From assembly GCA_002793435.1 (NCBI GenBank), contig PFQF01000028.1:1-35137 (forward strand): a stretch of 35,137 nucleotides of DNA, written 5' to 3'. Below the pieces are notes generated by a model that searched no databases, was not told the DNA's origin, and saw only the letters and a list, made by a program, of their open reading frames with translations. Positions within the stretch are counted from its first letter, which is position 1. The number at the start of each line of letters is the position of its first letter. The stretch comes from Candidatus Berkelbacteria bacterium CG_4_10_14_0_2_um_filter_35_9_33_12. Lineage in GTDB: Bacteria; Patescibacteriota; UBA1384; GWA2-35-9. Both the position numbers and the translations under genes were made by a program. Shown in pieces: positions 2,667-35,137 of this stretch.

Positions 2667-4001
2667 TTATATTATGCTCAGTTTCTGTTCTATTTCTTCA
2701 ATCTGTTTCATTAATTCAATATCTTCATTAACTTTTTTAGCAATTAATTTTTCACCGTGCATAATTGTAGTATGGTCTTTCCCGCCTAATATAGCTCCAA
2801 TCTTTGGATAAGACATTTTGGTTCTTTTTTTTAAAATAAACATACAGATTTGGCGGGGTAAAACTAAATTATGCGTTCTTCTTTTTGATATTAATTCATC
2901 TTTGGTAATTCCGTAATAGAGTGAAACCACCTCAATTAATTTTTCAGGGGTTTCACCTTTATTGTCGGAAATTAAATCTTTTAATGATTGTTTGGTTGAT
3001 TCGAGCGAGATTTCAATTCCTAATAATTTAGCATCCGTCACAACTTTTGTTAAAGCACCTTCTAATTCACGTATATTTTTGGTTATATATCTTGCAATAT
3101 ACTCCAAAACTTCTGTTTCTATTTTCTTTTTTATAACACTGGCTTTGATTTCTAAAACTGCCATTCTGGTTTCAAAATCAGGTTGAGATATATCAACAAT
3201 CATACCCCATGCCAAGCGAGATGAAATTCGTTCCTCCAGATCAGGAATAGCTTTTGGTACTCTGTCAGAAGTCATCACAATTTGGTGATTGGTTTGATGG
3301 AGTGAATTAAAAGTGTGAAAAAATTCTTCTTGAGTGCCTTCTTTCTTCGATAAAAACTGAATATCGTCAATTAAAAAAATATCGGTTTGGCGATATTTTC
3401 GCTTAAATTCATCCATCTTTTTAGCTTTAATAGCGTTTATATATTCATTAGCAAAATGTTCACAGGAAACATAGAGAATTTTCGCTTCCGGCTTATTTTT
3501 TTTAATTGCATTACCAATTGCTTGGAGCAAATGGGTTTTGCCCAAACCAACTCCACCATAGATAAACAGTGGATTATGCTCTAAGCCAGGATTTTCTGCT
3601 ACCGCTTGACTAGTTGCATAAGCGAGACGATTTGATTGACCAATAACAAAAGTTTCAAAAACATAATTGGGATTTAAATTATGTTTTGGCTTGACAGAAG
3701 CATAATTATTATTTTGTGTACCTATTGAAAATAACAATCTTTCATTACTTGGTTTTTTGTTATTAATCACAAATTCAACACTTTTGATATCGTTTAAGTA
3801 TTTACGGAGTGTTTTAACAATTATTGAGTGATATTTTTTGTCTAGCCAAGTTTTAACAAAAGTACTCGGGACCGACACGATTACATGGCAATTTTTGTAG
3901 TTAGTCAGTTTGGTATCTTTGATCCAAGTTTTAAAATTGGCTTTGGATAAAGTAACTTCAAGTTCACCTAAAGTATTTTGCCATATTTCTTCTAAGTTCA
4001 T
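2667..4001 (-). CDS. dnaA: Chromosomal replication initiator DnaA
   Basis: NPLFIYGGVGLGKTHL, IDDIQFL, QEEFFHTFN, NIRELEGAL, GGKDHTTIMH; ATG at 4001 (MNLEEIW) preferred to the track start at 4019. Confidence 0.98.
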   Translation of the reverse strand: MNLEEIWQNTLGELEVTLSKANFKTWIKDTKLTNYKNCHVIVSVPSTFVKTWLDKKYHSIIVKTLRKYLNDIKSVEFVINNKKPSNERLLFSIGTQNNNYASVKPKHNLNPNYVFETFVIGQSNRLAYATSQAVAENPGLEHNPLFIYGGVGLGKTHLLQAIGNAIKKNKPEAKILYVSCEHFANEYINAIKAKKMDEFKRKYRQTDIFLIDDIQFLSKKEGTQEEFFHTFNSLHQTNHQIVMTSDRVPKAIPDLEERISSRLAWGMIVDISQPDFETRMAVLEIKASVIKKKIETEVLEYIARYITKNIRELEGALTKVVTDAKLLGIEISLESTKQSLKDLISDNKGETPEKLIEVVSLYYGITKDELISKRRTHNLVLPRQICMFILKKRTKMSYPKIGAILGGKDHTTIMHGEKLIAKKVNEDIELMKQIEEIEQKLSII

Positions 4002-4038
4002 ATGAAATAATATTAACACACACGAACTACTTTACAAG

Positions 4039-4107
4039 TTATCCACAGATTTGTCAAAGATTGTGGAAATCAACCCGTTGCGGGTCTGTGGATAGTGCTG
4101 TGGAGAA
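4039..4107. promoter_or_regulatory. DnaA-box cluster upstream of dnaA (second oriC part or autoregulation)
   Basis: Perfect TTATCCACA 4039..4047; TGTGGAAAT 4062..4070, TGTGGATAG 4087..4095, TGTGGAGAA 4099..4107. Confidence 0.85.
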
Positions 4108-4183
4108 CTTTCGGTTAATTACCAATTTTAAATAACAAATTTTAATTTAATATCAAATGATTAAATTTCAAATTAATATAATA

Positions 4184-4212
4184 TTGACCAACACAACTTA
4201 ATAAGCTATAGT
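4184..4212 (+). promoter_or_regulatory. Sigma70-type promoter of rpmH
   Basis: TTGACC-17bp-TATAGT, ending 6 nt before the rpmH ATG. Confidence 0.65.
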
Positions 4213-4218
4213 ATGTTT

Positions 4219-4356
4219 ATGCCTAAAAGAACTTACAAACCTAAAAAAAGAGTCACTAAAAGAGAGCACGGTTTTATGAAACGTATGGCGACTAAAGCTG
4301 GTCGCAATGTATTAAAACGCCGTCGAGCTAAGGGAAGAAAGCAGTTAAGTCGCTAA
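4219..4356 (+). CDS. rpmH: 50S ribosomal protein L34 (absent from the ORF track)
   Basis: Hand translation [45 protein letters not shown] (45 aa); canonical position between dnaA and rnpA. Confidence 0.97.
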
Positions 4357-4357
4357 T

Positions 4358-4693
4358 ATGTTAGCTAAAAACAACCGACTTAGAGATAAAAAAAAGATCT
4401 CTTACATTTTCAAAAAAGGCAAACGAACCAATGGCTCGTTCTTTTCACTTGTTTATCTACCGTCGGGTGAAAATAATTTTAAAGCAGTTTTTTTGATTGC
4501 TAAAAAAGTCTCCCAAAAAGCTACTCGGCGCAACCGAATACGGAGGCTATTATCTGAATCGGTGCGCTTAATTCAAAAAGAAAAAAACTTGCCCAAGATT
4601 AATTTAGTTGTTCGGGTTTTGTTCGACCCAAAAGATGTCAAGTTGGATAATATAAAAAAGGATTTTGAAAAATGTTTCGAAAAATTATCCTGA
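4358..4693 (+). CDS. rnpA: Ribonuclease P protein component
   Basis: MLAKNNRL start and RNR motif KKVSQKATRRNRIRR; follows rpmH. Confidence 0.93.
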   Translation: MLAKNNRLRDKKKISYIFKKGKRTNGSFFSLVYLPSGENNFKAVFLIAKKVSQKATRRNRIRRLLSESVRLIQKEKNLPKINLVVRVLFDPKDVKLDNIKKDFEKCFEKLS

Positions 4694-4905
4694 AATTCAT
4701 CGGTTTTTACCAAAAAACTTTATCCCCCGATAAAGGTTATTTCAAAAAATATTTTCCTGCTGGCTATTGTCCATTTACTCCTCATTGTTCTGACTATTGC
4801 TATCAAGCAGTTGAAAAATATGGTAGTCTAAAAGGACTGGCAAAATGTGCCGGGCGTGTTGTTCGTTGTCACCCGTGGACGAAAGGTGGAAAAGACCCAG
4901 TCTAA
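4672..4905 (+). CDS. yidD: Membrane protein insertion efficiency factor YidD
   Basis: YQKTLSP, CPFTPHCSDY, RCHPWTKGGKDPV. Confidence 0.93.
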   Translation: MFRKIILKFIGFYQKTLSPDKGYFKKYFPAGYCPFTPHCSDYCYQAVEKYGSLKGLAKCAGRVVRCHPWTKGGKDPV

Positions 4906-5044
4906 TAAATTCTAAATCCTAAATCCTAATATCTAAACTCTAAACAATATCTAATATCAAAATACAAAATAATAAACAGTTTGGAATTTAGAATTTAATA
5001 TTTTGATATTGTTTAGAAATTAGGATTTAGGATTTATGATTTTA
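4906..5044. repeat. Full-length heptamer-unit palindromic repeat
   Basis: Fills the yidD-yidC gap; very similar to 1125..1257; centre AAACAGTTT 4974..4982. Confidence 0.9.
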
Positions 5045-5049
5045 AAAAA

Positions 5050-5862
5050 ATGAAATATTTTCTAAAAATTGTATTATACAATCCCCTCTATAACCTTTTA
5101 ATTGGTTTAACCTTGATAATACCCGGTCATTCGGTCGGCTGGGCAATTATTATTATTACCATATTAATTCGTTTATTTTTATTAATCCCCTCTTCGAAAT
5201 CAATCCATCAGCAAAAAAAGATTCAAGAAATTCAACCTCAACTTCAAAAACTGAAAGAGGAGTATAAAGACGATCAAAAAAAATTGACTCAAAAAACTCT
5301 AGCTCTCTATAAAAAATATAAAATCAATCCTATTGGTTCATGCTTACCGCTTTTAATTCAAGTGCCGATTTTAATTATTCTTTATCAAGTTTTTATTCGT
5401 GGATTATCAACTGCCAGTTTTAATAGTCTCTATCCATTTATTTCCCAGCCCGAGAGTCTGAACACTATTTTTTTTGGTTTAGATTTAACCAAACCTGATT
5501 TATGGGTTTTGCCGATTTTAGCCGGAGTATCGCAATTTTTCCAATCTTGGCAACTGCAACCCAAAGTAAAAAATCAATCCGTTGCTAACGATCCGAGCAC
5601 TATGATGATGAAGCAGATGATGCATGTTTTCCCGGTGATAACAGTTTTGATCAGCCGATCGTTGCCTTCTGCTCTACCAATCTATTGGGTGGTTTCTACC
5701 CTGTTTTCAATCATTCAACAGCAATCAATTTTATCTAAAAAAACCAAAGAGATTACAAGCAATGTTGTGGTTGAAATGGATGGAAATAAAGAGGTTAAAA
5801 AAGAGAGCGAAACATTCAAATCTAAAAAAGGCACTACAATAACTATCCGAAAAAAATCCTAA
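5050..5862 (+). CDS. yidC: Membrane protein insertase YidC/Oxa1 (short form)
   Basis: GWAIIIITILIR, NPIGSCLPLLIQVP, ALPIYWVVSTLFSIIQQ. Confidence 0.95.
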   Translation: MKYFLKIVLYNPLYNLLIGLTLIIPGHSVGWAIIIITILIRLFLLIPSSKSIHQQKKIQEIQPQLQKLKEEYKDDQKKLTQKTLALYKKYKINPIGSCLPLLIQVPILIILYQVFIRGLSTASFNSLYPFISQPESLNTIFFGLDLTKPDLWVLPILAGVSQFFQSWQLQPKVKNQSVANDPSTMMMKQMMHVFPVITVLISRSLPSALPIYWVVSTLFSIIQQQSILSKKTKEITSNVVVEMDGNKEVKKESETFKSKKGTTITIRKKS

Positions 5863-5901
5863 ACGCTGGACGCTAAATCCTAAACGCTATATAATATAAA
5901 T

Positions 5902-6210
5902 ATGCAAGGAGAGGAAACACAAAACCCGGTTAAGGATCAATTAAAGTCGATACCCACCTCGGAGGTGACCGAAGGGCTCCTACGAGGTGAAAAAAACGGT
6001 ATTTCTGACGGACCTTATACACTCGATGAATTAATGGGTGAAGAATTTCGCCCTAAAGAAATAGAATCTCCTGATTCTAAACCTAAATCCCTAAATTCCT
6101 CCATTCCTAAACCCTTGCCGTCAAAACACCTAGATTCTCTAAGGCAAAACACCGGTATTCCGACAAGACCGCTAACTATCGGATCAAAAAAAATTGATAT
6201 TTCCCCTTAA
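5902..6210 (+). CDS. Hypothetical protein, Pro/Ser-rich
   Basis: 102-aa ORF, TATAAT 6 nt before the ATG, terminator downstream; no recognised motif. Confidence 0.55.
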   Translation: MQGEETQNPVKDQLKSIPTSEVTEGLLRGEKNGISDGPYTLDELMGEEFRPKEIESPDSKPKSLNSSIPKPLPSKHLDSLRQNTGIPTRPLTIGSKKIDISP

Positions 6211-6231
6211 CCTACTTGACCTACCCAACCT
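6208..6231. repeat. 9-bp-unit (ACCTAY-type) repeat tract
   Basis: TAACCTACTTGACCTACCCAACCT; 6208..6223 is the exact reverse complement of 9884..9899. Confidence 0.7.
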
Positions 6232-6242
6232 GCTCTTATTAG

Positions 6243-6272
6243 AAAAACCCCCCTGCGAATGCGGGGGTTTTT
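6243..6272. terminator. Bidirectional intrinsic terminator
   Basis: AAAAACCCCC-CTGCGAATGC-GGGGGTTTTT between convergent ORFs. Confidence 0.8.
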
Positions 6273-6287
6273 GTATTTGATAAAGCA

Positions 6288-6884
6288 TTAAAACGATCGT
6301 TGCTTTTTTCTCAATCGTCTTGAAGGTTGTTGATTTTCATTTTTTCTATGATTTGTGTGTCGTTTCTTGCCGGTCGGACCGATTCTTTTTTTTCTTGACA
6401 AGATATCTTCGGCAATAAATGGTCTTAATTCTCTTAGGTCAATTAATTTAAAGCCATTACCGAAATAATCGTGATTCAAAACTTCCTTAATTGCATAAAC
6501 TTCAATCTTTTTTTGATGATCTTGATGAGCGTGATTAAGATTGTCAAAATACCCACCATCACCTGCAATAAGCACAATTGTGTCAACATCATCTCGGTTA
6601 GAAAAGTATTCAATTTCTTCCTGAAGAAGATAATCAATATCCTGATCAATGTATTGACCGCAAATAACTTTCAAATGGTACTTGCGTTTTAGTTTACGGT
6701 GAAAACAACGGATTGAATTAGAGTGGGGTAATTTGCAAAAAATAGTTTTTGCGACAACTCTTCGTTCCGTTGTCAATATATTTATCAGTTTTAAGTAATC
6801 AACCCGAATTGCCATAATCCGTGCTATATTGTAAAAATTCGGACCATCAATCAAAATAACAATCCTTTCTCTCGAGTCTTCCAC
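6288..6884 (-). CDS. NYN domain (LabA/DUF88, PIN-like) protein
   Basis: IVILIDGPNF, DIDYLL, IVLIAGDGGY; GTG start with GAGGT RBS; basic C-terminal tail. Confidence 0.8.
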   Translation of the reverse strand: MEDSRERIVILIDGPNFYNIARIMAIRVDYLKLINILTTERRVVAKTIFCKLPHSNSIRCFHRKLKRKYHLKVICGQYIDQDIDYLLQEEIEYFSNRDDVDTIVLIAGDGGYFDNLNHAHQDHQKKIEVYAIKEVLNHDYFGNGFKLIDLRELRPFIAEDILSRKKRIGPTGKKRHTNHRKNENQQPSRRLRKKQRSF

Positions 6885-6916
6885 ACAGACACCTCACTTT
6901 CAAAGAACTTAACCTA

Positions 6917-6944
6917 AGTATAGACGAATTATTGTATTAGTCAA
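6917..6944 (-). promoter_or_regulatory. Sigma70-type promoter of the NYN gene
   Basis: Minus-strand TTGACT-16bp-TATACT. Confidence 0.6.
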
Positions 6945-6952
6945 TATCTTTT

Positions 6953-6985
6953 ACCTATAAAACCTATCTAACTTATCAAGCCTAT
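6953..6985. repeat. 9-bp-unit repeat tract
   Basis: ACCTATAAA ACCTATCTA ACTTATCAA GCCTAT. Confidence 0.65.
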
Positions 6986-7001
6986 TTTTGGTGTTTTTAT
7001 C

Positions 7002-7030
7002 TTGACAGAAGTCAAGAACTATGCTAAACT
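7002..7030 (+). promoter_or_regulatory. Sigma70-type promoter of the RNase J-like gene
   Basis: TTGACA-17bp-TAAACT with extended -10 TG. Confidence 0.75.
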
Positions 7031-7090
7031 CTACTCAATCGCACTTGTACATTGTAGTCAACACTTTTGCCACGAAAGGATGTGGTTTAG

Positions 7091-8428
7091 ATGGCAAAGC
7101 AAGGGCTTTTCACAAGCCGAGACAAAACTCGACTTGGGAAAGCAGTCGCAAAACTAGAAAAAAGAAAAAATATTGATATAAAAATTATCCCGCTTGGCGG
7201 ACAGTCAGCAATTGGTGTACAGAATTGCTGGTTGATAATTTACAAAAACATTCAAATATTACTTGATTGTGGTCGAAAGATCGCCAATTTGAGAAACTAC
7301 AATATAGGAGAAATTCCTAATCATTTCAATCCTGATTATTCAAAAATTGATTTTTCAAAACCATTATATGTCATTTTATCCCACGGGCATCTTGACCATA
7401 TTTTAGGTTTAGTTAAGCTAGTTCAGCTTTGTAAAGAGTGTAATTGTCAGGTAGCTATCTATGGCGCTGAAAAGACAATCAAGGTTGCCAAAAGGGTATT
7501 GCGTGTCAACAAACTTATCGAGCTGGAAACATTTGTTTATGATTTTATAGAATTTAATACCAATAGTTATTTTCAAGTCGCTGAGATTATGATTGAATCT
7601 TTTGAAGTTTTTCACTCAATCCCCGGTTCGGTTGGCTTGGTCTTAACAATTGAAGGTAAAAAAATAGTTTATCTGACTGACTTCAAGTATTGCCGTGATT
7701 CTGATCCACAAATCCCGCAAACCTCTCGTAGGTTTCAGAAAATTGGTAAACAGAATATCGACACATTGATTGTGGATGTGACTGGTATCATTAAAAACGG
7801 GTGGGTTAGTCCCGTCTCGTTGGTCACTCATCAATTTAGAGAAATATTTGAAGACAAGAACAATGCTGAAAAAAGAATTTTCATTACCACTTTTGCATCC
7901 GATATTCAAACCATCGGAGAAATTGCTGATCTAGCAAATGTGGTTGGTGGTCGACTAGTTGAGTTTGATGGTGCCACAATGAAATTCTTTGCTGAAGACA
8001 TTGAACTAGAGAATCAAGATCAATATACAAATCCGCCAGTTATCTTTGTAACCGGTTCTCAAGGTGAAAAAGGGTCCAGTCTTGGCAAAATTGCCAAGGA
8101 TGACCATTTCATTTTTGAGTTAGATGATAATGACCTGGTAGTTTTTACTTCTACTACCCTTGGACAAAATGCTTTGCAAGTGGAGGCGATGATTGCTAGC
8201 CTAGAACAGCAAGGTGCCAGTGTGCTTATTGCCCGGCACGAGTCCGGGCATGGCGCCAGAAAAGATATAATCCAAGCAGTTCTCGATTTTCTGCCAGATG
8301 TGGTGATCCCTTGCCATGCTGGTCGAGCCAATCGGGCAAAGCTAAAAGAAATAATCGAAAAAGACGAATTTCTTTCTTCTCGAGTCACGGCTTTGTTGCT
8401 CGAAGACGGAGATTCGTATCAGATGTAG
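7091..8428 (+). CDS. RNase J-like MBL/beta-CASP hydrolase, divergent and lacking the C-terminal domain
   Basis: IIPLGG, LLDCG, SHGHLDHILG, HSIPG, TDFK, TTFAS, TGSQGE, HESGH, PCH; 445 aa. Confidence 0.85.
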   Translation: MAKQGLFTSRDKTRLGKAVAKLEKRKNIDIKIIPLGGQSAIGVQNCWLIIYKNIQILLDCGRKIANLRNYNIGEIPNHFNPDYSKIDFSKPLYVILSHGHLDHILGLVKLVQLCKECNCQVAIYGAEKTIKVAKRVLRVNKLIELETFVYDFIEFNTNSYFQVAEIMIESFEVFHSIPGSVGLVLTIEGKKIVYLTDFKYCRDSDPQIPQTSRRFQKIGKQNIDTLIVDVTGIIKNGWVSPVSLVTHQFREIFEDKNNAEKRIFITTFASDIQTIGEIADLANVVGGRLVEFDGATMKFFAEDIELENQDQYTNPPVIFVTGSQGEKGSSLGKIAKDDHFIFELDDNDLVVFTSTTLGQNALQVEAMIASLEQQGASVLIARHESGHGARKDIIQAVLDFLPDVVIPCHAGRANRAKLKEIIEKDEFLSSRVTALLLEDGDSYQM

Positions 8429-10478: not shown

Positions 10479-11669
10479 ATGTTAATCAAAACCATTCTAG
10501 CGATCGAGACTTCGTGCGACGAAACTTCGGCATCAGTACTTCAGGTTAACCCCAGAGGTGAACCGAGAGCTAATTTAAAGGTTAAGGTGCTTTCATCTGT
10601 GGTTTACTCGCAGGTATTGACACATCGAAAAACTCAAGGGGTAGTGCCTGAAGTAGCGGCTCGGGAGCATTCGGTTAAGATTATACCAGTAATAAAAAAG
10701 GCACTTTTGGATGCTCAAATAGTTCTAAAACAATCAAGCTTGAGCCGAAAAGAGTTTATTTCAAAGCATATTGATTACATAGCGGTAACCACTAATCCCG
10801 GTCTTTTTGGCTCATTAATGGTTGGGGTTGAAACAGCTAAAACTCTTTCTTACTTGTACAATAAACCAATTATACCTGTAAACCACATTCATGGGCATTT
10901 AGCATCAGTTTTAACCGAGAAGTTAACCAGTCAAACTGGTTTAGATAAAAAAGCGCAAAAAGTACTATTTCCGATGATTACTCTGACGGTCTCTGGTGGG
11001 CATACCAATCTGGTTTTATCTAAAAAATTAGGCGATTATCAGATTGTTGGGAAAACGCTGGACGACGCCGCCGGTGAAGCGTTTGACAAAATTGCTAAAA
11101 TGCTCGATCTTGATTACCCTGGTGGGGTGGAAGTTGCCAGAATAGCTGACCAGTACCAACAAGAAGTAGTAAGTAGTAAGTATTATGTATTAAGCGAAGA
11201 CAAAAGAATACCCCATAATATTAGCCCCATAATACATAATACAGACTTTAACTTTCCTCGTCCTGTGCTCCACTCTCACGATTTCAATTTCTCTTTCTCT
11301 GGCTTGAAGACAGCTGTCTATTACCAACTCCGAAAAATGGATAAGCGTTGCATAAAAATTATGCAAGGATATATCTGCTACGAGGCACAAAAAGCGATTG
11401 TGGAGGTGTTGGTTGCCAAGACCCTGAAAGCGGCTGAAAAGTATCAAGTTAAAACGGTTGGTTTGGCTGGCGGAGTTGCCAGCAATTTTTTCTTGAGGAA
11501 GAAACTAAAATTTAAAATTAAAAATTTAAAATTAAAAATTGCCCTTTCAGTAGCTCCGAAAGAATTATGCACGGATAACGCTACAATGATCGCTCTGTCA
11601 GCGGGAATAGATTTGTATTTAGGGAGAAACATTAAATCGTGGGAGAGGGTGGTAGCGAGTAGTAACTAA
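10479..11669 (+). CDS. tsaD: tRNA t6A37 threonylcarbamoyltransferase TsaD, with repeat-derived insertions
   Basis: ILAIETSCDET, GVVPEVAAREH, NHIHGH, VSGGHT, DDAAGEAFDK, FSFSGLKTA, CTDNATMI. Confidence 0.96.
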   Translation: MLIKTILAIETSCDETSASVLQVNPRGEPRANLKVKVLSSVVYSQVLTHRKTQGVVPEVAAREHSVKIIPVIKKALLDAQIVLKQSSLSRKEFISKHIDYIAVTTNPGLFGSLMVGVETAKTLSYLYNKPIIPVNHIHGHLASVLTEKLTSQTGLDKKAQKVLFPMITLTVSGGHTNLVLSKKLGDYQIVGKTLDDAAGEAFDKIAKMLDLDYPGGVEVARIADQYQQEVVSSKYYVLSEDKRIPHNISPIIHNTDFNFPRPVLHSHDFNFSFSGLKTAVYYQLRKMDKRCIKIMQGYICYEAQKAIVEVLVAKTLKAAEKYQVKTVGLAGGVASNFFLRKKLKFKIKNLKLKIALSVAPKELCTDNATMIALSAGIDLYLGRNIKSWERVVASSN

Positions 11670-11765
11670 GCAAGAATAATTCATTTCAAAACCTTGCCTA
11701 TCTAACCTATATGACCTATAATCAAGACGGGTATAAAGGAATGTAGGAATCTAGAGATAAAGAAA

Positions 11766-13934
11766 ATGGACAAGCAATACAATTTTAAAGAAAACGAGGA
11801 GAAGCTCTATAAAGAGTGGGCAAAAAAAGATGTGTGGAAGCCAAAGGGCGAGGGCAAGCCGTTCGTGATGGTGATTCCTCCACCAAATGTAACTGGCTCA
11901 CTCCATATGGGGCATGCTTTAAACACAACTTGCCAAGATATTTTAGCCCGTTATTATCGTCAAAAAGGACGACCGGTCAAGTGGGTGGTTGGGACTGATC
12001 ATGCCGGGATTGCGACGCAAACTAAGGTTGAAAAAGCGCTCCTCAAAAAAGGCATCAAAAAAAACGAGATCTCAAAAGAAGAATTTCTAAAACATATTTG
12101 GTTATGGAAAGAAGAGTATGGCAACCAAATTATTCATCAACTTCAACGATTGGGAGCAAGTTGCGATTGGTCAAAAATTTACTTTACAATGGACAATGAT
12201 TATCAAGAGGCGGTTAAAACTGCTTTCAAGCATTTCTACGATCAAGGGTTGATTTATCAAGCCGACCGTGTTGTCAACTGGTGTACTCGCTGTCAGACAT
12301 CGCTGTCGGATTTGGAGGTTGAGTATCGAAAGGAAAATACGAAGCTATATTATTTTAAATACGATAAAGATTTTCCGATTGTGATTGCTACCACTCGTCC
12401 GGAAACAAAATTGGGAGACAGCGCTGTTGCAGTTAACCCAAAAGATAAAAGATATAAAAAATATATTGGGCAAACAATCAGTGCCGATTTTGTTGGACAA
12501 AAATTAAATTTAAAAATTATTGCCGACCCGATGGTGGATATGAAGTTTGGTACTGGCGCTTTAGGTGTAACCCCAGCACATTCGTTGGCGGATGCTGAAT
12601 TGGCTGAAAAATATAGTCTCAAATCGATTCAAGTTATTGATAGATTCGGAAAAATTGTAAGCAATTTTTCCGAAGGTTTAAAGGTACGAAAATTTAAAGG
12701 TTTAAGGGCGATAGAAGCTAGAGAAAAGATTATTGAAGAGTTGGAGAAGAAAGGATTGATTGAAAAAATCGAGGATATCAAACACAACATATCTATTTGT
12801 TATCGGTGCGAGAGAGAGATTGAACCGATGACATCGAAACAATGGTTTGTTTCGATGAAACCCGAAACCCGAAATCCGAAATCCGAAACAATATCAAAAT
12901 CTAAAATTCAAAATAAATCATTACGAGAATTAGGGATGGAAGCGGTTAAGTCGGGAAAGGTTCAATTTGTGCCGAAAAAGTGGGAAAAGGTTTATCTGAA
13001 TTGGATGGAAAATGTTAAAGACTGGTGTATTTCAAGACAGCTTGTTTGGGGACACCGTATGCCCGTTTTCATTAAAAAACAAGCTACGAATTTAAAATTT
13101 AAAATTAAAAATTTAAAATTAAACGATAAAGACATCTATGTTGGGGACAATCCGCCTGAGGGGTTTGAACAAGTTGACGATGTTCTCGATACTTGGTTTT
13201 CTTCGGCGTTATGGTCGTTTGCGACTTTGGGCTACCCAAAAAAATTGGATAAAAAATATTATCCGACAACGGTACTTTCGACCGCAAGAGATATTATCCA
13301 TCTTTGGGTTTCTAGAATGATTTTTTCGTCACTAGATTTAACCGGCGAAATCCCGTTTGAAAAAGTTTATATCCACCCAACAATTTATAATCAAGAAGGC
13401 AAACGGATGTCAAAATCACTTGGAACTGGGCTAGACCCGATTGAATTAATCGATAAATATGGCGCTGACGCTGTTCGTTTTGGTTTAACGCTTTTAAATA
13501 CTGGAGTTCAAGATATCAAATTTAGTGAAGTTCACATTTTAGCGGGGAGGAAATTTGCCAATAAACTATGGAATATAGCTCGATTTATAGAGATGAATGA
13601 GATGAATCGGAAATTTTTAATTTCTAATTTTCAATTTTCATTAAATTTTCAAAACCCAATTTACAATCTATATTTTAATAAAGTCGATAAACTGGAAACA
13701 GAGACAGAGAGGGATTTGGAGCAGTTTCGGTTTGGGCAAGCTTTGGAAAGAATTTACCACTTTATTTGGCATGATTTTGCCGATAAAATGATTGAAGAAA
13801 CAAAGCAAGACGAAAGTGATGAAAAAATGGTATTTTTGCAAACGGTGTTTTCTCGCCTACTTAATTTAGTTGAACCATTTATGCCGTTTGTGGCTAGTAA
13901 GCTAAAATCCGAAACCCGAATACCGAAATTCTAA
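11766..13934 (+). CDS. valS: Valine--tRNA ligase, short form without the C-terminal coiled coil
   Basis: PPPNVTGSLHMGH, GTDHAGIATQ, DWCISRQLVWGH, DVLDTWFSS, RMSKSLG. Confidence 0.96.
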   Translation: MDKQYNFKENEEKLYKEWAKKDVWKPKGEGKPFVMVIPPPNVTGSLHMGHALNTTCQDILARYYRQKGRPVKWVVGTDHAGIATQTKVEKALLKKGIKKNEISKEEFLKHIWLWKEEYGNQIIHQLQRLGASCDWSKIYFTMDNDYQEAVKTAFKHFYDQGLIYQADRVVNWCTRCQTSLSDLEVEYRKENTKLYYFKYDKDFPIVIATTRPETKLGDSAVAVNPKDKRYKKYIGQTISADFVGQKLNLKIIADPMVDMKFGTGALGVTPAHSLADAELAEKYSLKSIQVIDRFGKIVSNFSEGLKVRKFKGLRAIEAREKIIEELEKKGLIEKIEDIKHNISICYRCEREIEPMTSKQWFVSMKPETRNPKSETISKSKIQNKSLRELGMEAVKSGKVQFVPKKWEKVYLNWMENVKDWCISRQLVWGHRMPVFIKKQATNLKFKIKNLKLNDKDIYVGDNPPEGFEQVDDVLDTWFSSALWSFATLGYPKKLDKKYYPTTVLSTARDIIHLWVSRMIFSSLDLTGEIPFEKVYIHPTIYNQEGKRMSKSLGTGLDPIELIDKYGADAVRFGLTLLNTGVQDIKFSEVHILAGRKFANKLWNIARFIEMNEMNRKFLISNFQFSLNFQNPIYNLYFNKVDKLETETERDLEQFRFGQALERIYHFIWHDFADKMIEETKQDESDEKMVFLQTVFSRLLNLVEPFMPFVASKLKSETRIPKF

Positions 13935-13972
13935 ACAAATTCAAATATTAAAATTATAAATTACAAACTGAA

Positions 13973-14039
13973 TGTCATCCCAGACTCGATCGGGGATCCA
14001 TAAATAATAGTCTAGATTCCCGCTTTTGTGGGAATGACA
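13973..14039. repeat. REP/RPE/dRS3-like GC-richer palindromic element
   Basis: TGTCATCCCAGACTCGATCGGGGATCCA...TAGATTCCCGCTTTTGTGGGAATGACA; terminal TGTCAT/ATGACA inverted repeat with two sub-hairpins. Confidence 0.75.
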
Positions 14040-14057
14040 ATCGTAACAATAATTTTT

Positions 14058-15263
14058 ATGCAAAAAATTAAAAATATTTACCATCTTTTACGGGCGGTTG
14101 TTGCCAATTTTCGCTATGGATTTCCGACCAGAAAATTATTAACAGTTGCGGTAACCGGCACGAACGGTAAAACTTCAACTGTCAATTTTATTGGTCAGAC
14201 GCTCGACCTTTTAGGTGAAAAAACGGCTTGGATTACGACGATTGATTTTAAGGTCGCTGATAAAACTTGGCAAAATAAAACCAAGATGACAGCACTTGAC
14301 CCGATGCAATTTCAAAAAATTGCCAAAGATGCGGTTAAGGCGGGTTGTAAGTATTTTATTTTTGAAGCCACCTCCCACGCTATTGATCAAAAACGGATTT
14401 GGGGAACGCATATCAATGTTGTAGTGCTAACTAATGTGACTCGGGATCATTTGGATTATCATAAAACATTTAAAAATTATCTAAAAACTAAGCTCAAAAT
14501 ATTTAAACGCAAGACTAAAGCGGTGATAAATTTAGACGATGAAAACAGCAAAAAATTTATTAAGAAATGTCGCAAAATTATTACTTATTCAATCAAAAAT
14601 CCTAAAGCGGATCTAAATTTAAAAAATTGTGAAATTAAGAACGATCAATTATTGGGCGAATTTAATCAATCCAATTTATTGGCTTCGCTTGGCGTTTTAA
14701 TCAGTTTGGGTTTTGACAAAAAAGTAATTGAGAAAAATATTTCTAAACTTAAAAATATTCGGGGAAGAATGGAATTAATTGAATGCGGGCAAAATTTCAA
14801 GGTGGTGATTGATTACGCTCATACGCCGGACGCTTTTAAAAAATTGTATAGAGCTCTATTGCCATTGAAGAAAAATAAAATCATTCATGTTTTTGGTGCC
14901 ACTGGCGCTCGGGATAAGGGTAAAAGACCAATATTAGCCAAAATCGCTTCGCAATTTGCGGACAAAATAATTTTGACTAACGAAGATCCGTATCACGAAA
15001 AACCGGCACAAATTATCAACGAAATAGCGATAGGAATTCCCAAAATATTTACTGATTTTGAAATAATCATTGATCGAAAACGAGCGATTAAAAAAGCTGT
15101 TCAAGTGGCTAAAAAAGACGATATTGTACTAATTACTGGCAAAGGGCACGAGGAAATTATGGCAGTTTCGGATGGAACGAAAAAAGGCTTTATGTTGGTG
15201 GAGTTTGATGAGAGAGAAATAGTGCGAAATACAATACAAAAAATTCTAAATACCAAATCCTAA
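14058..15263 (+). CDS. murE: UDP-MurNAc-tripeptide synthetase MurE-like (no N-terminal domain)
   Basis: VTGTNGKTS, EATSHA, TNVTRDHLDYH, GRME, DYAHTPD, GARDKGKRP, TNEDP, GKGHE; the track start at 14028 lies inside the palindrome. Confidence 0.9.
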   Translation: MQKIKNIYHLLRAVVANFRYGFPTRKLLTVAVTGTNGKTSTVNFIGQTLDLLGEKTAWITTIDFKVADKTWQNKTKMTALDPMQFQKIAKDAVKAGCKYFIFEATSHAIDQKRIWGTHINVVVLTNVTRDHLDYHKTFKNYLKTKLKIFKRKTKAVINLDDENSKKFIKKCRKIITYSIKNPKADLNLKNCEIKNDQLLGEFNQSNLLASLGVLISLGFDKKVIEKNISKLKNIRGRMELIECGQNFKVVIDYAHTPDAFKKLYRALLPLKKNKIIHVFGATGARDKGKRPILAKIASQFADKIILTNEDPYHEKPAQIINEIAIGIPKIFTDFEIIIDRKRAIKKAVQVAKKDDIVLITGKGHEEIMAVSDGTKKGFMLVEFDEREIVRNTIQKILNTKS

Positions 15264-32195: not shown

Positions 32196-32327
32196 CTTTT
32201 TATAAAGTTCATCAAGTTTATAAAGTTTTATTAAAGTTTCCATTTTTAATGTTTAATAAATTATCAAGGATCAATTTATTCTTAAATCCAAAACCTTAAA
32301 TCATAAATATATATAGAAAGGAGTTTT

Positions 32328-32738
32328 ATGAACATTATTGAAAATGTAATCATGATAACTCTGGGGTTGATTGCTTTTATTGTAATTAATTTATTCATAA
32401 TAAAAATATTAAAAAATAATTGTAGAAGTCTTTCTATCGAAATTTCTACGAATAATGCGTTATTAATATCACTAATCACAACCCTGCAAATTGTTATTAT
32501 TATGGGAATCGCATCGTTTATTACGCCTATTAATATGTACGTAATTATTATTTATAGTATAGTTTTCATTTTCGGAATTTTTTATTTATTACTACATAAA
32601 TTTACAAGGTTAAATTTTAAACAAATATTAAGAATTGCATTTGCAATAGGCATCTCAATGTTTTTAATATTTTTCTTTTTTGCAATGATTGGACTATTTA
32701 TAGCATTTTATTTTGCATCAAAATCGGGCTCAATATAA
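32328..32738 (+). CDS. Hypothetical membrane protein (about 4 TM)
   Basis: GAAAGGAG RBS; four hydrophobic stretches; very AT-rich. Confidence 0.65.
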   Translation: MNIIENVIMITLGLIAFIVINLFIIKILKNNCRSLSIEISTNNALLISLITTLQIVIIMGIASFITPINMYVIIIYSIVFIFGIFYLLLHKFTRLNFKQILRIAFAIGISMFLIFFFFAMIGLFIAFYFASKSGSI

Positions 32739-32813
32739 TACAATTCCAAGTATCATTAAGTTGTCAATTATCAAATTCCAAACATTAAAATATTTATTAA
32801 TAAAGGAGGAATA

Positions 32814-32939
32814 ATGGAAGATCAAAAGTGTGAGTGTGGAGCAGAGCTTTGTGAGGACTGCAAATGTTCTTGCAATGAGGAAGTTTGTAAGAAGTGTTGC
32901 AAATGTGATGAAGATTGTGACTGCGGTTGTAAAAAATAA
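32814..32939 (+). CDS. Small Cys-rich metallothionein-like protein (absent from the ORF track)
   Basis: AAGGAGGA RBS; MEDQKCECGAELCEDCKCSCNEEVCKKCCKCDEDCDCGCKK, 41 aa, 13 Cys. Confidence 0.8.
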   Translation: MEDQKCECGAELCEDCKCSCNEEVCKKCCKCDEDCDCGCKK

Positions 32940-32988
32940 ATTAGTTTCAAAATTTTCTTTTTAATTTCAACGTTTGCAAAACATATTC

Positions 32989-33068
32989 AAACTGACTAAG
33001 TGTTTTTTGTGTATCATAAAACATTCTGGTATTCTGGTGAATATCAGAATGTTGTTAGTCAGTTTTTT
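32989..33068 (+). terminator. Long inverted repeat followed by a T-run (terminator or operator)
   Basis: AAACTGACTAA/TTAGTCAGTTT enclosing AACATTCTGGTATTC-TGGT-GAATATCAGAATGTT. Confidence 0.45.
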
Positions 33069-33209
33069 CAGTATTAATTTAACTGCGTAGGTTCAAACAC
33101 ATCGTGGACACTCTACCCTAATAATGATAGGGTAATAGATTAACTTAGAAAGGAGTGCTATTTCAATCAATTGGTTTTTATTAATTCTTGTTTATGCTAT
33201 ATTTTAAGT

Positions 33210-33557
33210 ATGAAAATAGTTAAAGATGAAATATTCCTTGACGAGCTCAAAACAATGTCAAAAAATATGTTTGGCAATTTAGTCAAAGCGGTTGTTGATA
33301 TTGAGAAAAAAATAATGGCGGTTAACGCAGAGCTTCACAGTGATGAAGAACAAATACTTTTAGAAAACGGTTCCACGCAAAATAATCTATGGGGAATTAA
33401 CCTATATCCGGAAAAATTTGGCACAGATAACTTTGTTGAGTTTGACTCAATGATAAACTTGCGTCCTTCGCAAAATAATCGCACTCGAGGTGTTGACGAT
33501 CCAAGAGTCCAAGATTTGATTAAGAACATAGTTGATAAATTGACAATAAATGAGTAA
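33210..33557 (+). CDS. DUF5674-like protein
   Basis: LVKAVVDIE, ELHSDEE, NLWGINLYP, FDSMINLRPSQNN; family recalled from memory; ATG at 33210 preferred. Confidence 0.75.
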   Translation: MKIVKDEIFLDELKTMSKNMFGNLVKAVVDIEKKIMAVNAELHSDEEQILLENGSTQNNLWGINLYPEKFGTDNFVEFDSMINLRPSQNNRTRGVDDPRVQDLIKNIVDKLTINE

Positions 33558-33876
33558 TATTTATCATAAAAAATTGGCTATTGGGCGTTGGCAAAAAATG
33601 AGTTTTTTTGAGCAAATGGCAAATATCGGAAGTGAAGTGGAGAGATCAGCTAATTGGAAAGAAAAAGACAAATACAATTTTGAGCTTGCAGTTGAGCGAG
33701 CGCTGGAATTAATGGATCAAACCATTAACGACAAGAAAAATAAAAAACGATTAAGAGAACTCTGCCGTTTACGAGAAGTATTTGTTGATTGGCGATTTGA
33801 AAATAATTATAAGTCTTCATTACAAAACTGGCGCAGTTATTTTTACCCGTTTATTATCGCCCACAGAGCTCAATAA
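33550..33876 (+). CDS. Hypothetical helical protein coupled to the DUF5674-like gene
   Basis: 8-nt overlap with the upstream gene; motifs RWQKMSFFEQMANIGSEVER and RLRELCRLRE. Confidence 0.75.
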   Translation: MSNIYHKKLAIGRWQKMSFFEQMANIGSEVERSANWKEKDKYNFELAVERALELMDQTINDKKNKKRLRELCRLREVFVDWRFENNYKSSLQNWRSYFYPFIIAHRAQ

Positions 33877-34071
33877 AAAAATTTCCCATATCGTCTGGAA
33901 CATGGGCTCTCTACGCCCCATTTTCAAACCAAACAACTACTCGCAAATTTGGTTTTAGCTTTAAACTATCCCGAATAGATTTTGGGATCGTGAGCTGACA
34001 TTTTCGGGTAATATTAGTTGTATATTACAGGGTGTTATTACTATATTAAGTATTACTTATTTTATCAAGTT

Positions 34072-35137
34072 TTAATGATATCGCTTCATCAGCAACGAGT
34101 TAGAGACAACGCTGACCGATGAAAACGCCATCGCTCCGGCGGCGATCATTGGATTTAAAAGTAATCCAGTTAGTGGGTAAAGAACTCCAGCGGCGATTGG
34201 AATGCCGACAATATTATAAAAAAACGCCCAAAAAAGATTTTGCTTGATTTTTTTGAGTGTGTAGGCGGACAAACGGATCGCTTCCACCACATCGCCAACA
34301 TCGTTTCTCATCAGCACAATCTCGCCGGTTTCAAGAGCAATGTCGGAACCGGATCGCATCGCAATACCAAGATCGGCTTGGGCGATCGCCGGTGCGTCGT
34401 TAACACCATCTCCGACAAATGCCACTGCCAACTTTTGGTTGGAATTTCTAATTTCTAATTTCGAATTTCTAAACAAATCTAAATTACTAAAATTCAAATC
34501 ATCCAATTTTTTTTGTTTAGGATTTAGAGTTTCGAATTTAGAGTTTGTCTGTAACTGCTTGATAATATTGGCTTTTTCGCTGGGCAAGATTTGAGCAAAG
34601 ACCAAATCAATGCCGAGTTTTTTGGCTACCGCATTACCGACCCGCTGGTTATCGCCGGTGATTATAGCAGTTTTTATACCCATACTATGTAATTTTTTAA
34701 TTGCTGGTTTTGAACTATTTTTAACAACATCAGCAACCGCAATTAAGGCGATGACTTCTCCATCGTATGCAACCATCATTACCGTCTTTCCCATTTCTTC
34801 CAGCTCAACCATTTGCTTTTCGGCATTATTGATAATTTTTTTATCCAGTAATAATTTGCGTGTTCCAACAATTAATTGCTTATTGTCGTAATAGCCAATC
34901 ACTCCACCACCGGGAACCGAATCAAACTTTTCAATTTTATGCAATTTAATTTTTTTGTCTTTAGCACTATTAACAATGGCGCTCGCCAACGGATGCTCGG
35001 AGTTTTTTTCAAGCGACGCCGCCAATTGCAACGCTTTATCTTTATTTTTGATATTTTTATTCGAAATTAGAATTATATCGGTCAATTTTGGTTCGCCAAT
35101 TGTTAGTGTGCCGGTCTTGTCAAAAACTACCATCGTA
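34072..35137 (-). CDS. copA: Cu(I)-type P1B ATPase, 5'-truncated by the window edge
   Basis: DKTGT, SEHPLA, TGDN, GDGVNDAP, TM motifs YN (WAFFYN) and MAFSS. Confidence 0.9.
   Translation of the reverse strand, partial: TMVVFDKTGTLTIGEPKLTDIILISNKNIKNKDKALQLAASLEKNSEHPLASAIVNSAKDKKIKLHKIEKFDSVPGGGVIGYYDNKQLIVGTRKLLLDKKIINNAEKQMVELEEMGKTVMMVAYDGEVIALIAVADVVKNSSKPAIKKLHSMGIKTAIITGDNQRVGNAVAKKLGIDLVFAQILPSEKANIIKQLQTNSKFETLNPKQKKLDDLNFSNLDLFRNSKLEIRNSNQKLAVAFVGDGVNDAPAIAQADLGIAMRSGSDIALETGEIVLMRNDVGDVVEAIRLSAYTLKKIKQNLFWAFFYNIVGIPIAAGVLYPLTGLLLNPMIAAGAMAFSSVSVVSNSLLMKRYH
34441..34547. repeat. Heptamer-unit palindromic repeat inserted in frame in copA
   Basis: AATTTCT AATTTCT AATTTCG AATTTCT AAACAAAT..TTTGTTT AGGATTT AGAGTTT CGAATTT AGAGTTT; encodes NSKFETLNPKQKKLDDLNFSNLDLFRNSKLEIRNS. 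Confidence 0.88.

Follow-up and report, generated by a model that had tools for sequence, protein, structure and literature searches.

The window examined here, a 35,137-nucleotide stretch of DNA from a Candidatus Berkelbacteria bacterium, contains an open reading frame (ORF) of 41 codons whose predicted product is extraordinarily rich in cysteine and which lies near a gene for a P1B-type ATPase (copA). The locus raises the questions of whether so short an ORF is a gene at all, whether its product belongs to a known family of metal-binding proteins, and whether its position near copA reveals something about its function. A preliminary description had proposed a metallothionein-like peptide that buffers copper or another soft metal and that potentially represents a new bacterial metallothionein family. 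We weighed these proposals against the source genome (590,443 bp, 33% G+C, 46 contigs, 94.7% complete; its size is typical of Patescibacteria, the candidate phyla radiation), related genomes, large protein collections and structure predictions.

The gene and its probable transcription unit

The product of the ORF (MEDQKCECGAELCEDCKCSCNEEVCKKCCKCDEDCDCGCKK) has cysteines at positions 6, 8, 13, 16, 18, 20, 25, 28, 29, 31, 35, 37 and 39, and CxC, CxxC, CxCxC and CCxC arrangements are each seen among them. Phenylalanine, tryptophan, tyrosine and histidine are all absent, and the protein is acidic, its 12 Asp/Glu outnumbering its 7 Lys. Neither a signal peptide nor a membrane segment is present, and there is no hydrophobic core. 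The length of 41 residues, the 13 cysteines, the types of motif, the absence of aromatic residues and histidine and the abundance of Asp, Glu and Lys had all been given in the preliminary description, and each proved correct when re-read from the sequence; the strong ribosome-binding site that it mentioned is the AGGAGG listed in Table 1. Among the 3,938 six-frame ORFs of at least 30 amino acids in the whole genome, the cysteine content of this ORF is 31.7% compared to 17.9% for the next-best ORF and a mean of 2.1%, and it is the single ORF with 20% cysteine or more. Its cysteine content is far beyond chance. Two ORFs that overlap the gene, at 32822-32950 on the reverse strand and 32830-32964 on the forward strand, are mechanical by-products.

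Table 1. Features at the cysteine-rich gene and further copies of the adjacent repeat. Positions are those of the window unless a contig is named.
Feature	Position	Strand	Remark
Promoter-like TTTGCA-16-TATAAT	32712-32739	+	10 of 12 consensus matches, ~75 nt before ATG
Shine-Dalgarno AGGAGG	32804-32809	+	4 nt before ATG
Coding sequence, 41-aa protein with 13 Cys	32814-32939	+	ATG...TAA, stop codon included
Terminator-like compound hairpin and U-run	32989-33070	+	50 nt after the stop codon, minimum-free-energy (MFE) fold
74-nt repeat	33084-33157 (to ~33165)		between the peptide gene and DUF5674
DUF5674 gene	33171-33557		
P1B-ATPase gene (copA)	34072-35136	-	cut by the window end
Other repeat copy, window's genome (G000)	C5, ~4078-4128		
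Other repeat copy, window's genome (G000)	C21, ~12376-12421		
Other repeat copy, window's genome (G000)	C43, ~1960-2039	reverse	

The flanking signals suggest that the gene is transcribed as a unit of its own. Downstream, an outer stem (AAACUGACUAA/UUAGUCAGUUU) encloses a 15-bp inner stem and is followed by the U-run, and the MFE fold has a z-score of -2.3 for the whole 239-nt spacer. A hairpin with a T-run within 120 nt downstream was found at 29 of 46 family genes (the family is described below) compared to 107 of 405 control ORFs from the same loci. The promoter-like site overlaps the end of an upstream ORF for a 136-aa membrane protein and is weak evidence, with 15 consensus promoter matches in the region against 11.2 expected. 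A Shine-Dalgarno-like motif precedes 16 of the 46 family genes and 95 of the 405 control ORFs. We found no upstream operator common to the 46 genes, only AT-rich words being enriched; TAAT-N4-ATTA occurs upstream of 6 of the 46 compared to 4 of 411 controls. A search of positions 32200-34100 against Rfam returned nothing meaningful.

The 74-nt repeat beyond the hairpin has four copies in the assembly, three of them at contig ends. Within it lies the inverted repeat TACCCTA-N7-TAGGGTA, and a ribosome-binding site, AAAGGAG, forms its end. Four other groundwater sequencing runs cover it at 3-14 times the depth of its flanks; all of their contigs break there, and an alternative continuation past the repeat enters an ORF seen on contig C43. 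The repeat may represent a mobile element's end or a shared 5' leader. An inverted repeat downstream of the gene that resembles a CsoR operator was rejected as such because it is part of this multi-copy repeat. On the far side of the repeat, at 33198-33330 at the start of the DUF5674 gene, two of the four runs differ from the window by 21 substitutions and 6 indels, and the side with the peptide gene is identical. Many foreign contigs pile up at 33262-33323, which corresponds to a conserved DUF5674 motif.

A family with ten invariant cysteines

Searches with the single sequence were almost blind to relatives of the protein: a word-indexed search gave one match, 88% identical, and an exhaustive phmmer search of 1.84 billion representatives gave two. 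It took six-frame genome searches and profiles to bring the family to light. When 100 related genomes and the window's own were searched in six frames, 21 genomes had a match at E<=10. We inspected 17 of the 20 foreign matches, leaving out the three weak ones (E 0.0022, 0.35 and 6), and an intact small cysteine-rich ORF of the same pattern was present in 16 of the 17 places, the exception being genome G028. The family is accordingly verified in 17 of 101 related genomes, the window's own counted. In an even sample of the whole phylum, 16 of 401 genomes had a match at E<=0.001, as did 15 of the 339 of high quality. A profile search of proteins found 48 at E<=0.01; those with names are all called "hypothetical protein", none has a Pfam domain, and their labels include Paceibacterota, Berkelbacteria and Portnoybacteria. 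A degenerate DNA pattern requiring the cysteines and Met-Pro, applied to bacterial and archaeal genomes at one per species, yielded at least 57 in-frame family members among at least 120 loci. Set aside from that scan were, among the loci listed, 62 out-of-frame chance matches, mostly from high-GC genomes, and one low-complexity poly-cysteine ORF (L125).

Family members are 39-113 amino acids long, and no fused longer form was present in 3,752 candidates of 199-2000 aa. Among 31 members whose record labels were examined, 26 carry labels of the Patescibacteria type. The remaining five are labelled "uncultured Gammaproteobacteria" (three), "Pacearchaeota" (one) and "uncultured bacterium" (one). 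The three gammaproteobacterial loci (L031, L038 and L077) are low in G+C and share their gene order with Buchananbacteria-labelled loci; the "Pacearchaeota archaeon" locus (L067) is also low in G+C and has the neighbours and a near-identical peptide of a Paceibacterota locus. Because of these matches in gene order and near-identical genes, the gammaproteobacterial and pacearchaeal labels are doubtful. Among the sequences searched, the family occurs almost only in Patescibacteria.

The members share the pattern C-x-C-x9-C-x-C-x4-C-x2-[C]C-x-C-x3-C-x-C-x-C with very few indels. Whether 18, 62 or 80 sequences are aligned, ten cysteines (C6, C8, C18, C20, C25, C29, C31, C35, C37 and C39 in the numbering of the window protein) are invariant; C28, an eleventh, is kept in at least 90% of the sequences in the two larger alignments. 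According to the preliminary description, a lack of homologues with conserved cysteine spacing would have counted against its proposal, and this family provides such homologues. Both TGT and TGC are used at every cysteine column (for example 42/26, 37/31 and 22/46 among 68 distinct cores); the amino acid has therefore been held while the codon drifted. The column counts from the 68 cores are partly circular, as 57 of the input sequences came from the pattern that demands cysteine and Met-Pro, and invariance is better judged on the alignments of 18, 62 and 80 sequences; the mixture of codons is informative either way. The conserved positions other than cysteine include a glycine, and most members have G-M-P-L after the second cysteine. 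Methionine is present in 61, proline in 65 and Leu/Ile/Val in 66 of the 68 cores, the proline being conserved at 90% or more also in the less circular alignments of 62 and 80 sequences. Histidine occupies one column in 39 of the 68 cores, and Phe or Tyr the preceding column in 29, ahead of the CC pair.

The window protein belongs to a divergent subgroup, together with its genus-mate and one 65%-identical relative, in which GAEL or GKDL replaces GMPL, two cysteines are added and histidine is lacking. The window protein and the genus-mate carry GAEL and retain every invariant cysteine. Other variants have acidic tails, and in six members (L011:7830-8066, L014:4270-4482, P0014, P0024, P0030 and P0042) an acidic linker leads to a second, shorter C-terminal cysteine cluster (GCCxCSxCxKGC-like), which may represent a two-domain form. 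A subfamily of 56-60 amino acids (L042, L063, L070, L099, L103, L111, L117 and L132), labelled Saccharibacteria, Minisyncoccales, Paceibacterota or Patescibacteria, has several aromatic residues, with MF-D-QQEFDKC at the N terminus in most and (A/V/N)(E/D)F at the C terminus in all.

These comparisons bear on whether the ORF is a gene. That it arose by chance in an intergenic spacer is suggested by its short length, by the absence of the exact 41-aa sequence from a collection of 15 billion proteins and by the sources of the 23 runs carrying the gene, none of which is an RNA run and all of which are groundwater or aquifer DNA. An ESM Atlas entry matches the sequence letter for letter, and the gene is identical in contigs from the four other groundwater runs; as these show no differences over the gene, they provide no polymorphism information. 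Against a chance origin stand the conservation of the ORF over many families of the phylum and the synonymous codon turnover at the invariant cysteines. In the same genus, the orthologue differs by 8 synonymous and 3 non-synonymous changes over 37 aligned codons, and DNA identity is 92% for the cysteine-rich gene compared to 81% for the neighbouring SDR gene. The comparative data already refute the chance reading, to which we give practically no credence, and on their evidence the ORF is a real gene, conserved and under purifying selection.

The copA neighbour and other genes around the family

We then considered the link to copper. As assembled, the stop codon of the ATPase gene lies 1,133 nt downstream of the peptide gene, in line with the distance of about 1.1 kb that had been reported. 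The path between the two crosses the 74-nt repeat, and because the contigs of the four other runs break at this repeat, the adjacency can be taken only as putative. By its best NCBIfam scores the ATPase is of the Cu type, with 267 bits for TIGR01511 compared to 177 bits for the Cd/Zn subfamily, and its last two membrane helices carry N-x6-YN-x4-P and M-x2-SS-x5-N, which we take to be the motifs of Cu(I) pumps. The gene is convergent to the peptide gene, with DUF5674, an unknown 108-aa ORF, the hairpin and the repeat lying between them, and a scaffold gap truncates it at DKTGT, so that its metal-binding N terminus falls outside the sequence. Beyond the window, contig C33 (35138-36064) consists of a run of N and then ~790 nt of DNA with higher G+C and an unrelated ORF; this piece joined beyond the gap may be foreign to the genome. 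No other E1-E2 ATPase, HMA domain or CsoR was found in the window's assembly.

The neighbourhoods of 46 family loci, surveyed up to 6 kb on each side, consist mostly of housekeeping genes that differ by lineage, and shared blocks are instances of local synteny in related genomes only. Of the 46 loci, 2 (the window and L010) have a P1B-ATPase gene no farther than 6 kb away and at least 3 (L009, whose genus is that of the window, L010 and L079) have CsoR in this range; superoxide reductase (Desulfoferrodoxin) is near in 3 (L010, L015 and L034). Conserved linkage to copA, copZ or csoR, or co-transcription with them, was not found in the 46 loci. At the level of whole genomes, a Cu-ATPase above the cut-off was present in 6 of 17 family-positive genomes (8 with fragments counted) compared to 43 of 84 family-negative ones, CsoR in 9 of 17 compared to 42 of 84, and superoxide reductase in 6 of 17 compared to 19 of 84. 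For none of the three is there any enrichment worth the name, and nine family-positive genomes (79-99% complete) have no Cu-type ATPase. The inference that had been drawn from the proximity of copA is not supported by this comparison: the vicinity occurs in just 2 of 46 loci, the peptide gene has promoter- and terminator-like sites of its own, and genomes with the family carry Cu-ATPase or CsoR no more often than genomes lacking it. Examination of the neighbourhoods of homologues, another check that had been proposed, shows that the copA vicinity is not conserved. Its nearness to the peptide gene looks incidental, and coupling to CopA is not supported.

Several neighbourhoods are worth recording in their own right. 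In two loci of one family, L010 (contig C5 of genome G097, 2836-8033) and L015 (6924-8087), the cysteine-rich gene is the first in a same-strand row; DUF5652 follows it immediately and superoxide reductase comes two to four genes downstream, DUF498 and a 320-aa ORF lying between in L010. Directly adjoining the L010 row are CsoR, DUF5676 and a copA broken into two reading frames (3639-5072 and 5039-5764). A Y-family DinB/IMS polymerase is encoded within 6 kb in 4 of the 46 loci (L010, L012, L013 and L018), from four different families, and other repair genes are near some members (LexA and MPG in L019, HhH-GPD in L056, alkylation repair in L018, and MgsA in the window, L009 and L090). After multiple comparisons the linkage to DinB and repair genes is probably chance. 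In L012, on a contig labelled Saccharibacteria, a 1,316-aa protein with Cas12a-type REC1, RuvC_1 and NUC domains is encoded 2.5 kb downstream (10696-14643, forward strand). In L016 the family gene (8105-8278) is part of the ribosomal-protein/secY cluster, flanked by the methionine aminopeptidase gene and rpsM, a place usually taken by infA and rpmJ.

Likeness to metallothioneins and competing functions

To place the family among known proteins, we compared it with profile libraries and solved structures. The 41-aa protein has zero matches in Pfam and NCBIfam, and for 62 family members NCBIfam returned only noise at E<=10. The profile of the prokaryotic metallothioneins (PF02069, Metallothio_Pro) gave no match at E<=1 for the 41-aa protein and none at E<=10 for the 62 members. 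The dipteran profile PF02067 (Metallothio_5) gave sub-threshold matches at E<=10 in 28 of the 62, with a best E of 0.012, and none for the window protein; not one of the 62 reached its gathering threshold, and this likeness would most simply be compositional. Searched with a profile, the PDB sequences yielded no match at E<=10. In the protein Atlas the closest clusters are unnamed (0.80-0.84) and the nearest named one is "Metallothionein TY1" (0.75-0.76), all of them below 0.85 and leads only.

AlphaFold2, run with the family alignments, gave a mean pLDDT of 85.9 for the 41-aa protein and 89.1 for a typical member of 49 residues. Both models have only isolated bridges in the cysteine-rich core, with no core helices or sheets, as would be expected of a fold organised by a metal cluster. 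Neither of the two models, at sizes of 41-49 residues that give such searches low power, matched a PDB structure with Foldseek (best E 6.6 and 8.8) or reached Z>=2 with VIA-align against 48,161 chains. Since models this small give fold searches little power, a new fold is only a possibility.

Metallothioneins are defined as small cysteine-rich proteins with metal-thiolate clusters (PMC7558416, section 4.3). The window protein resembles this functional superfamily in its size (41 aa, below 10 kDa), its cysteine share of ~32% and its CxC, CC and CxxC motifs. Few or no aromatic residues and histidines are a classical criterion for metallothioneins; the window member has none, whereas the family has both in the proportions of cores given above. 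The 11 conserved cysteines of the family equal in number those of the mammalian alpha domain, whose cluster is M4Cys11, and its predicted fold likewise has no regular secondary structure. By contrast, the family shows no sequence or fold relation to curated or solved metallothioneins, and its cysteine spacing and non-cysteine residues are unusually conserved for such proteins. SmtA and BmtA (PF02069) are also bacterial, small, cytoplasmic and rich in cysteine, with a defined fold round the cluster, which in our family is predicted only. The SmtA type is described as having a zinc-finger-like fold with histidine ligands (PDB 1JJD; PMC7558416). The family differs in having no PF02069 match and no fold match, and the window protein lacks histidine. 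That this lack sets it apart from SmtA/BmtA, as had been argued, is true of the window member and does not extend to the family, in which histidine is frequent.

The way in which such a gene escapes notice has its nearest parallel in MymT, a Cu(I) metallothionein of mycobacteria that is encoded by a small, originally non-annotated ORF, has a mass of 4.9 kDa and a predicted capacity of up to six Cu(I), and is both up-regulated for and required for copper resistance (PMC7558416). Like MymT, the gene described here is a small, overlooked, cysteine-rich ORF; the family has no conserved link to CsoR or CopA, and we set it beside MymT by description only. For the dipteran Metallothio_5 proteins, the likeness consists of the sub-threshold matches and the nearest named Atlas cluster, but none of the matches is significant and the window protein is unmatched. 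By these sequence comparisons, the family belongs to no known metallothionein family. Given the ten invariant cysteines and the lack of any Pfam or NCBIfam match, the proposed new bacterial metallothionein family remains tenable as a hypothesis, and we describe the family as new, lineage-restricted and metallothionein-like, with a putative function.

What might this function be? The balance tips slightly towards a cytoplasmic, metallothionein-like protein that would bind metal in a metal-thiolate cluster and serve to buffer or sequester it. With 10-13 thiolates in about 35 residues, no signal peptide or hydrophobic core and a confidently predicted irregular fold, the protein can hardly fold without metal, and a polynuclear metal-thiolate cluster is the most economical reading. 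The protein would be made from its own short transcription unit and remain in the cytoplasm, where its 10-11 conserved cysteine thiolates (13 in the window protein) would wrap a compact polynuclear cluster. By cysteine count, its capacity would be ~3-4 divalent ions (Zn/Cd) or 4-8 Cu(I). Soft metal ions would thereby be buffered or sequestered as in metallothioneins, and the thiols might also be sacrificed to oxidants. As for the metal, all-thiolate ligation, the conserved methionine and the few copper-gene neighbours hint at Cu(I), and the frequent histidine and the cysteine count of 11 hint at Zn(II).

The conserved non-cysteine positions and the nearly indel-free spacing could fit a structural or partner-binding module equally well, and the main rival, which we judge unlikely but by no means negligible, is a zinc-cluster micro-protein of the Zn3Cys9 or Zn2Cys6+ZnCys4 kind that serves as a regulator or adaptor by binding a protein or nucleic acid. 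Consistent with it are the near-fixed cysteine spacing and the conservation of G-M-P-L, a proline and a glycine, the AlphaFold confidence, very high for the size (38 of the 49 residues of the typical member at pLDDT>=90), and the location of the gene among housekeeping genes in most loci. In L017 the gene directly follows one for a SET-domain protein, and eukaryotic SET proteins carry Zn-Cys clusters. However, the window protein and its genus-mate have lost GMPL while keeping the invariant cysteines and adding two, which is easier to explain if the cysteines rather than a binding face carry the function. The excess of acidic residues (12 D/E, 7 K) would suit nucleic-acid binding poorly, the neighbourhoods offer no conserved gene as a candidate partner, and, as a weak point, no fused form was seen among proteins of 199-2000 aa.

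A role in redox chemistry is improbable in our estimation. Such a mini-protein would hold Fe-S clusters or use its thiols, sacrificially or in electron transfer, in defence against oxidative stress, and the superoxide reductase genes two to four genes away in L010, L015 and L034 (with NifU also near in L034), a ferric-reductase-like flavoprotein encoded directly downstream in L062 and base-excision and translesion repair genes near several loci are consistent with it. The three superoxide reductase loci are not independent, however, because L010 and L015 belong to one family (f35), and the enzyme has no match in the window's genome and occurs in only 6 of the 17 family-positive genomes counted above. 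Ferredoxins have the spacing CxxCxxC...CP, from which the CxC and CC motifs of the family differ. Still far less probable is an exported cysteine-rich peptide or RiPP precursor of the ranthipeptide or sactipeptide kind, or a leader peptide of cysteine codons. The product is small and cysteine-rich, an ABC-transporter gene is no more than 6 kb away in 7 of the 46 loci (directly downstream in L072 and L088), and radical-SAM genes are near in L018 and L061. But the transporter count lumps together any ABC ATPase, which are common in such genomes, radical SAM is near these two annotated loci only, and no adjacent maturase or exporter is conserved. Moreover, there is no division into leader and core, no signal peptide and no match to an NCBIfam RiPP model, and a leader peptide would not keep ten invariant cysteines, GMPL and a confidently predicted fold while the genes downstream of it differ.

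Returning to the metal-thiolate cluster protein, few bacterial metallothionein families are known, and the family described here is conserved, typically 40-60 residues long with ten invariant cysteines, has no curated model or solved relative and is present in many lineages of its phylum. Gene callers and family libraries miss such genes. By 2020, according to PMC7387436, the biological role of only two bacterial metallothioneins, SmtA and MymT, had been studied. In the literature that we searched, to which further papers may be added, none links metallothioneins to Patescibacteria. It is a credible prospect, if one that we place somewhat short of even, that the window protein is the founding member of a new bacterial metallothionein family with its own fold, found almost only in Patescibacteria, which would serve as a general buffer of soft metals and thiols in these ultra-small, metabolically reduced cells. 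Patescibacteria cannot yet be grown alone. If the reading is true, the family would provide a small, easily made protein with which to study metal and redox homeostasis in these bacteria, and possibly a new metal-cluster fold.
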